Of a stretch of DNA of 64,000 nt, positions 25,392 to 26,074 are shown piece by piece; the stretch's first letter is position 1; each line of letters begins with the position of its first letter. Origin of the DNA: Escherichia phage vB_EcoM_SA21RB; sequence record OL960580. One strand, written 5' to 3'. The position numbers and the translations under genes are program-made. Below the pieces are notes generated by a model. That model saw nothing but the letters and a program-made list of their open reading frames with translations, did not search any database and was not told the DNA's origin.

Positions 25392-25414
25392 TTTATTCTC
25401 CTTTGTTTGTGTAA

Positions 25415-25448
25415 GATAATACTATCACAAAGGAACCATACTGTAAAC
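25415..25448 (-). promoter_or_regulatory. T4-type early promoter
   Basis: minus strand GTTTAC (rc of 25443-25448), about 18 bp spacer, TATTAT. Confidence 0.5.
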
Positions 25449-25477
25449 AACTTTGTGCAATCTTTGGAAAATAAAAA

Positions 25478-25497
25478 AGGACTCCCGAAGGAGTCCT
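25478..25497 (-). terminator. strong intrinsic terminator
   Basis: minus strand aggactcc-ttcg-ggagtcct followed by TTTTTTATTTT, directly after the small basic ORF stop. Confidence 0.7.
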
Positions 25498-25501
25498 CAA
25501 C

Positions 25502-25678
25502 TTATGCTTTCTGCTTACCAAAACGAGAAGCATCATCTCGAAGAACCGCACGTGCTCGACGCATGATCTTCTCAACAGTTTGATTGATACGAGAGTTCGA
25601 CCCACGCTTGTAGCCAGCGCGTTTAGAATCACCAACTTTCTTTTCAACTGCTTTCTTTGCTTTAACTTGTTTTGCCAT
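25502..25678 (-). CDS. small Lys/Arg-rich protein, probable nucleic-acid binder
   Basis: 58 aa from internal Met with SD AAAAGAGAA: MAKQVKAKKAVEKKVGDSKRAGYKRGSNSRINQTVEKIMRRARAVLRDDASRFGKQKA; the longer 72 aa frame has no RBS. Confidence 0.5.
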   Translation of the reverse strand: MAKQVKAKKAVEKKVGDSKRAGYKRGSNSRINQTVEKIMRRARAVLRDDASRFGKQKA

Positions 25679-26074
25679 TATAAATTCTCTTTTAAATGAA
25701 AATGCAGGACTTATTGGCATTGCCTGCGCAAGCCCTCAAGGGGAACATAGGTTTTGGATATTTAACGACAGGATAACCATAAACCCGTCATCATACCTTA
25801 TAGCTCTTATCTGTTGCACACCGTTAGCTTAAAGGTTCCGGGTCCGATTTCTCGAGGATAAGATATATACTGATGGATATATAGGCCTTGAGGCGTACTC
25901 CCGATTGGCCATCACCTCGGGGTAGCATGCACTTGCCGCTATAAGAATAACATTCAAGAGGTACACCGTAAAACTGCCGGGGTCTTAAAACTATAATGAT
26001 TCGCAAATCATTAATCAGACAGTTCGACGGCTCCTCGTTTTAACTTCACACTAAGGCAGTGACTCTCCAATAAA
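25679..26074. other. GC-rich structured non-coding region (candidate ncRNA or structured intercistronic element)
   Basis: about 400 bp with no plausible ORF; by-eye count of three 60-bp blocks (25801-25980) gives about 43-53% GC against a visibly AT-rich background; multiple potential stems, e.g. ccttgagg/cctcgggg and atgatt-cgc-aaatcat. Confidence 0.3.

Follow-up and report, generated by a model that had tools for sequence, protein, structure and literature searches.

About half of the genes of bacteriophage T4 are still without a function, and gene 30.9 is among them. RIII, the product of the neighbouring gene rIII, modulates RegB. The E. coli ribosomal proteins S15, S4 and L20 and T4 gp32 are small, basic RNA-binding proteins that regulate their own synthesis through structured or pseudoknotted leaders; in T4, autogenous control through leader structures is exemplified by the gp32 pseudoknot and the gp43 operator. 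The N protein of phage lambda is an arginine-rich-motif peptide.

Here we describe a locus of Escherichia phage vB_EcoM_SA21RB, located in a stretch of 64,000 nucleotides (sequence record OL960580; referred to as the window). The locus shares with T4 gene 30.9 the position between rIII and 30.8, the length of 58 residues, the terminator and the downstream early promoter. It differs in the spacer between rIII and 30.9, which is 396 nt in the window and 244 nt in T4, the latter being without a 153-nt unit that holds a 135-nt RNA element. Like S15, S4, L20 and gp32, a small and very basic protein is encoded behind a conserved pseudoknot leader, with the Shine-Dalgarno (SD) sequence predicted to be partly masked; unlike these systems, gp30.9 has no sequence or profile relation to the four proteins, the distance from pseudoknot to AUG is variable, the family extends to phages that do not have this leader, and binding of RNA is only putative. 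With N-type peptides gp30.9 has in common that a basic, largely disordered chain includes a short helical stretch rich in Arg (RRARAVLR); a hairpin with a GNRA-type tetraloop is found in the adjacent 135-nt element. However, conservation is highest in the SKRAGYKR-SN arm and not in the Arg-rich helix, the tetraloop is not kept as GNRA, and an antitermination context was not seen. The homologues of bS21 encoded by phages are similar in size, charge and disordered tail, but gp30.9 did not match the Pfam or NCBIfam models of ribosomal proteins (bS21, bL34, bL35 and others) or PDB sequences.

Identity and genomic setting of gene 30.9

The ORF (25678..25502) is read from the minus strand, as is every gene in this stretch, with its ATG at 25678-25676 and its TAA at 25504-25502. 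The original prediction was correct in its coordinates and in its translation, which matched exactly (MAKQVKAKK...FGKQKA, 58 codons plus TAA), but it did not state the strand and missed that the gene is the known T4 30.9. The ORF is the inner portion of a mechanically derived 72-aa ORF that starts at 25720. The 1.1 kb around it is 99% identical to Tequatroviruses, e.g. vB_EcoM-PM136 and JB75, and the window itself is from a Tequatrovirus, a T4-like phage. The order of genes and signals on the minus strand is cd, 31.2, 31.1, 31, rIII, spacer, 30.9, terminator, early promoter, 30.8 and 30.7; coordinates are collected in Table 1.

Residues 16-58 are 100% identical to those of T4 gp30.9 (NP_049823, locus T4p212, "gp30.9 conserved hypothetical protein"), and over the whole gene one amino-acid change (V5A) and one synonymous change separate the two. 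The protein matched phrog_1427 over residues 1-58 (E = 3.5e-31), a family whose function is listed as unknown. The signature of this family is present (an M-A/S-K start, a basic Ala/Lys arm, SKRAGYKR-x-SN-x-R-I/V and a basic helix), and so is its position, with rIII upstream and the terminator and the 30.8/30.7 cluster downstream. By sequence, the ORF is the orthologue of T4 gene 30.9, which is already annotated and is uncharacterised; the gene is not novel.

Table 1. Features of the rIII-30.9 region, in positions of the window.
Feature	Position	Strand	Remarks
Gene 31	26806-26471	minus	
rIII	26323-26075	minus	upstream cistron; transcription unit shared with 30.9
Distal spacer module A	25950..26074	minus	just 3' of the rIII stop; hairpin AAUGAUU-UGCG-AAUCAUU at 26012-25995
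Non-coding structured RNA element	25797..25945	minus	135-nt conserved core at 25938-25804
H-type pseudoknot, ~46 nt	25747..25792	minus	GAUGACGGGUUUAUGGUUAUCCUGUCGUUAAAUAUCCAAAACCUAU
Proximal leader hairpins	25704..25743	minus	CCCUUGAGGG at 25743-25733; GCAGG...CCUGC at 25727-25704
Translation initiation region	25685..25702	minus	pyrimidine tract UUUUC opposite SD-like GAGAA; weak SD-sequestering hairpin (predicted)
30.9 orthologue	25502..25678	minus	match to T4 NP_049823
Intrinsic terminator	25468..25498	minus	GAGGACUCC-UUCG-GGAGUCCUU plus U-run (U6)
T4-type early promoter of 30.8	25416..25448	minus	TTTACA-17-TAGTAT; begins next unit
30.8	25391-25059	minus	Pfam Phage_30_8
30.7	24990-24625	minus	Pfam Phage_T4_Gp30_7

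Longer starts, giving the 72-, 97- and 102-aa forms that are found in some GenBank records, were rejected, as they are not conserved. The old 97-aa '11.1 kDa' form of T4 (NC_000866; L002, 1860-2132) starts at an AUGAUG at the 5' edge of the pseudoknot, and an additional G in T4 is all that keeps it in frame. In several records 30.9 is mislabelled as 'glycogen branching enzyme' or 'baseplate wedge/tail pin', and in several records hypothetical CDSs are annotated over the non-coding 135-nt element. The overlapping 84-aa frame (+1; 25647..25393) spans the terminator and the early promoter of 30.8. It is open only in the closest relatives of T4, is broken even in two of those and contains stops in nearly all other genera; it was rejected as a gene for lack of conservation, which agrees with the original opinion that it is unlikely to be real. 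A 75-aa protein (P0039), from an assembly that bears the label Shigella flexneri, joins a frameshifted 30.9 to this alternative frame; its source is probably phage DNA within that assembly, with a 1-nt indel that arose either in sequencing or naturally.

Coding evidence and expression of gene 30.9

Because the genome is AT-rich, an ORF of 58 codons alone is little evidence for a gene; several other lines support this one. The comparison was made over 40 related loci with 50–100% identity. All 66 homologues, which came from T4-like phages or metagenomic contigs, have a common start (MAKQ/MSK). The median dN/dS was 0.30 (534 usable pairs), and the alignment columns that vary at codon positions 1, 2 and 3 numbered 34, 31 and 50 of 53, respectively. 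The +2 frame is closed by 5–12 stops in each homologue. The placement between rIII and the terminator was kept in 40 of the 42 loci compared, and the order rIII-spacer-30.9-terminator is found across T-even-type phages. The conserved start, the dN/dS of 0.30, the variation at position 3, the closed other frames and the conserved terminator together therefore identify 30.9, at the level of sequence comparison, as a genuine protein-coding gene under purifying selection. The original prediction had also taken the ORF for a real gene, to be doubted if the frame were not conserved in related phages; frame, start and synteny are all conserved.

The terminator that closes the rIII-30.9 unit follows 3 nt past the TAA. 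Its stem has 9 bp, with a ΔG of −14.9 kcal/mol, and the terminator was kept with covarying, compensatory stems in ∼34 of 35 distinct downstream regions (31 counted by script and 3 by eye), so that the strong intrinsic terminator of the original prediction is borne out. Scanning of the spacer for a promoter of 30.9 (sigma-70, MotA-box and late motifs) found none. In the interval 26420-25679, which runs from within rIII to the start of 30.9, a single weak sigma-70-like match was present at the 3' end of rIII (26102-26074), and MotA-box and late-promoter motifs were not seen. As the spacer holds no promoter motif, 30.9 is read from transcripts that pass through rIII; in the window phage it is the final cistron of the rIII transcription unit, without a promoter motif of its own.

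In T4, rIII has early, middle and late promoters, and RIII binds the ribosomal protein S1 (PMC9409239). A 2003 paper in Biologija (Driukas & Nivinskas), in the form in which it is cited by PMC9409239, concerns the expression of rIII and 30.9 in vivo; a literature search by identifiers returned unrelated papers only. The T4 30.9 transcript is classed as early, and gp30.9 was not detected in the T4 proteome by mass spectrometry (PMC9697503, Table S2). Such non-detection is expected, because the longest tryptic peptide of the product has 7 residues. In a CRISPRi-ART screen T4 30.9 was scored 'Not Fit' (score 0.04, p = 0.26), with its function listed as unknown (PMC11879866). Overall, T4 30.9 is an early-transcribed gene that the phage can do without in laboratory E. 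coli.

The SD sequence (AAGAG/GAGA) is located 8 nt 5' of the AUG. It is usable, as had been claimed, but weak and predicted to be partly paired. The weak SD, the absence of gp30.9 from the T4 proteome and the knockdown without phenotype would each be compatible with an ORF that is not translated at all, the interval being no more than the 3' portion of an extended UTR or non-coding region with an incidental open frame. We consider this extremely improbable in view of the median dN/dS and the excess of third-position variation, and of a start and a motif that are unchanged over 50–100% identity and also in distant relatives, whose flanks are unrelated. Moreover, SD motifs are stronger in Klebsiella-type phages (GGAAG-type) and in the Erwinia-type copy L042 (GAGGA), and the short tryptic peptides account for the missing protein.

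Properties of gp30.9

The product of 30.9 is a protein of 6.5 kDa with 11 Lys, 8 Arg and 5 Asp/Glu residues, a pI of 11.4 and a net charge of about +13.5, strongly basic as originally described. AlphaFold2, run with the family alignment, predicted a helix for residues 29-53 (pLDDT ∼90), preceded by a low-confidence tail (residues 1-28). Residues S18, K19, R20, A21, Y23, K24, S27, N28, R41, R43, A44, V45, R47, G54 and K55 are invariant. A hydrophobic stripe along the helix can be read from the sequence (I31, V35, I38/M39, A42, V45/L46, A50 and F53). The distant matches have the same layout, a Lys/Ala-rich N-terminus followed by SKRAGYKR-x-SN-x-R-I/V and a basic amphipathic helix, with variable C-termini.

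Searches of Pfam (no family at E≤1) and NCBIfam (no match at E≤10) were negative for gp30.9. The sole match in the PDB profile search was a 25-residue helix of SlmA (E = 0.28), which was taken as chance, and Foldseek gave no match of the AlphaFold model in the PDB, as expected because the model is a single helix and has no globular fold. When 1.84 billion representative proteins were searched with a profile, only 15 matched, and one of these (P0070, a 617-aa low-complexity repeat protein) was rejected as spurious. Thus homology to an RNA-binding or ribosomal family was not found in the Pfam, NCBIfam, PDB-profile, 1.84-billion-protein or Foldseek searches, and the family is limited to T4-like phages. 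The profile and structure-prediction searches that the original prediction had proposed have thereby been run, with no profile or fold match, and its likening of the protein to 'ribosomal-type' proteins found no support in them.

The target of such a protein need not be RNA. It could be a miniature dimeric DNA binder with a bZIP-like layout, or an inhibitor that blocks an acidic protein of the host, e.g. an enzyme of defence or nucleic-acid processing; many small, non-essential early proteins of T4 act as such inhibitors of host proteins. The hydrophobic stripe with its 3-4 repeat along the helix, the restriction of the family to T4-like phages and the accessory nature of the 30.x neighbours would suit a target of this kind, as would early expression and dispensability in the laboratory host, which are typical of accessory genes for host takeover and counter-defence (PMC9697503). 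Likeness to a known DNA binder or anti-defence protein was, however, not found in Pfam, PHROG, NCBIfam, the PDB profiles or Foldseek, the gene context indicates no partner other than rIII, and dimerisation of the modelled helix is hypothetical. Overall, a non-RNA target appears unlikely.

Structured RNA in the rIII-30.9 spacer

The spacer was found in 40 of the 42 loci compared, with lengths of 120–416 nt, and it is a mosaic of modules. The folding energy of the whole spacer is by itself unremarkable (z = −1.16). With Rfam 15 the best scores of the spacer RNA were 14–31 bits, against gathering thresholds of 41–100, so that no family was reached; a partial match to Atu_C8 (31 bits, gathering 50) covered only the terminator hairpin and the end of the CDS and was rejected, and the spacer alone gave microRNA-type noise only. 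A scan for tRNA and tmRNA was negative. The original claim that the interval upstream of the ORF is structured is backed by covariation, in a 135-nt element with a kissing loop and in a universal pseudoknot.

The core of the 135-nt element is enclosed by an AU-rich closing helix (25945-25939 with 25803-25797). Its model comprises seven helices, including a kissing loop of 6 bp between two hairpin loops. In the alignment 98.6% of the cells are paired in this model, and 29–42% if the 3' partners are slid. Twenty pairs are changed on both sides, a number reached by none of 500 shuffles, and the G-U pairs favour the gene-sense strand. The boundaries of the element are sharp, and the flanks are unrelated between genera. 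One hairpin has a GNRA-type tetraloop, which is replaced by UAAA or UAAU in variants. The element was rejected as a coding sequence, since each of the six frames is interrupted by stops and a 3-nt periodicity was not detected.

The 135-nt element occurs as a single copy in each of ∼402 records of T4-like phages, and all genuine copies found lie in the rIII-30.9 spacer. Matches were not found in E. coli genomes or in 185,579 prokaryotic species genomes. One hit of a pattern scan with the RNA core (L057) was a chance 20-mer in an unrelated GC-rich contig and was discarded. The unit that is missing in T4 corresponds exactly to the element with its AU-rich closing helix, and a covariance-model search did not find the element in T4 or in 14 further 30.9 loci. 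Between genera the element is 92–97% identical, while the neighbouring proteins are 50–75% identical, which suggests either very strong constraint or horizontal exchange.

The second module is an H-type pseudoknot, present in 40 of 40 unique rIII-30.9 spacers of the T-even group, that of T4 included. Its first stem (S1) pairs GAC-G-GG with CC-U-GUC, and the loop GGUU pairs with AACC past a conserved CGUUAAAU linker (S2). S1 occurs as 5 complementary combinations and S2 as several compensated variants; in the window, S2 is limited to the GGUU/AACC core. The placement of the pseudoknot relative to the 135-nt element and to the AUG of 30.9 varies between genera, the distance to the AUG being 77–130 nt in some phages and 250–350 nt in others. 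This variable distance makes a simple model of ribosome-binding-site occlusion a poor fit. The literature searched did not contain the 135-nt element or the pseudoknot.

Closer to the gene, pairing of the SD core (P>0.5) was predicted for 27 of the 30 unique leaders, in hairpins that are weak (mean z ∼−0.5). For the proximal leader hairpins, covariation was assessed visually in the alignment. One of them, small and covarying (CCCUUGAGGG, GCCUUCGAGGC), is conserved between genera. In T4-type phages a short hairpin comes next; Klebsiella-type loci (e.g. L008:2390-2500) have instead a larger domain of ∼75 nt, closed by GGGAGC/GCUCCC and with GAAA loops. Module A, at the distal end, is predicted to form a multi-stem domain. 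It is found only in T4- and Mosigvirus-type phages, whose sequences here are too alike to be informative about covariation.

Relation between gp30.9 and the spacer RNA

The original prediction proposed a functional pairing of the basic protein with the adjacent structured RNA. In that case gp30.9 would bind the spacer RNA, either to repress its own translation, in the manner of ribosomal-protein leaders or gp32, or to serve in a small RNP as its protein subunit or chaperone. The spacers lend this some weight: in the enterobacterial T-even group a structured spacer always lies directly 5' of 30.9, the conserved element in the gene's own leader (the pseudoknot, with covarying stems) is universal in that group, the genuine copies of the 135-nt element are confined to this spacer, and the SD is predicted to be partly sequestered. 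In addition, Arg/Lys-rich peptides are of a type known to bind RNA hairpins, and T4 offers the precedents for autogenous control through leader structures named above.

The distributions of protein and element, however, do not coincide. Gene 30.9 is present in ∼998 records and the 135-nt element in ∼402. The element is missing from T4 and most Tequatroviruses, in which gp30.9 is unchanged (a single residue differs in T4), and its presence or absence is scattered over all sequence types of gp30.9. The distant homologues (L039, L070, L071 and L072) keep the SKRAGYKR motif, and their genes have a promoter-like site of their own, a short leader and neither RNA module. In L071 the 30.9-like gene is located directly 3' of the DNA ligase gene and not of rIII. 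The distance from pseudoknot to AUG, as given above, is not conserved either. Because T4 and most relatives are without the element and the distant homologues are without either RNA, an obligatory pairing is unsupported, and we regard the functional pair as quite unlikely. A functional pairing of protein and RNA would be facultative at most, or in cis. The leader may control translation of 30.9 in cis, whether or not gp30.9 is the effector, which would fit the pseudoknot and the predicted partial sequestration of the SD.

A bolder version would be a dedicated regulatory module of the T-even phages, in which the pseudoknot or the 135-nt element (present in ∼40% of the phages) would be recognised by the basic arm and the helix of gp30.9, for autoregulation or as a small RNP that acts on the translation apparatus, from the same operon as RIII. 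We give this, too, only a small chance of being correct.

Discussion

The reading that we prefer, and hold to be probable, is that the ORF is the orthologue of T4 30.9 and an accessory early gene, that its product is a polyanion binder, and that the spacer acts in cis. According to this model gp30.9 would be a binder of a polyanionic partner and not an enzyme. The invariant SKRAGYKR-SN-R-I would sit in a disordered arm rich in Lys and Ala. The single amphipathic helix C-terminal to this arm, rich in Arg and with a hydrophobic stripe, may dock on the partner or dimerise, and the arm would fold upon binding, as occurs with the tails of ribosomal proteins and with arginine-rich-motif peptides. 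RNA, either mRNA or the ribosome, would be the most likely partner; we infer this from composition and modelled architecture alone, with which DNA or an acidic protein would be equally compatible. The structured spacer would work in cis on the rIII-30.9 mRNA rather than as an obligatory RNA partner of gp30.9, and the universal pseudoknot together with the predicted partial masking of the weak SD may hold translation of 30.9 low or conditional.

The analysis adds no function to 30.9. It settles the gene model, which is that of a 58-aa protein and not of the 72-, 97- or 102-aa forms or the mislabelled products of many GenBank records, and it defines a family signature and places 30.9 in a conserved unit of rIII, structured spacer, 30.9 and terminator. 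The spacer is more surprising than the gene, as it contains two RNA modules that are supported by covariation and belong to no Rfam family. Should the dedicated regulatory module be real, it would represent an RNA-protein system of a new class in phages, with an RNA family that has no match in Rfam. Since RIII binds S1 and modulates RegB, a co-transcribed basic peptide encoded behind a conserved pseudoknot is a reasonable candidate for an accessory factor directed at translation or mRNA.
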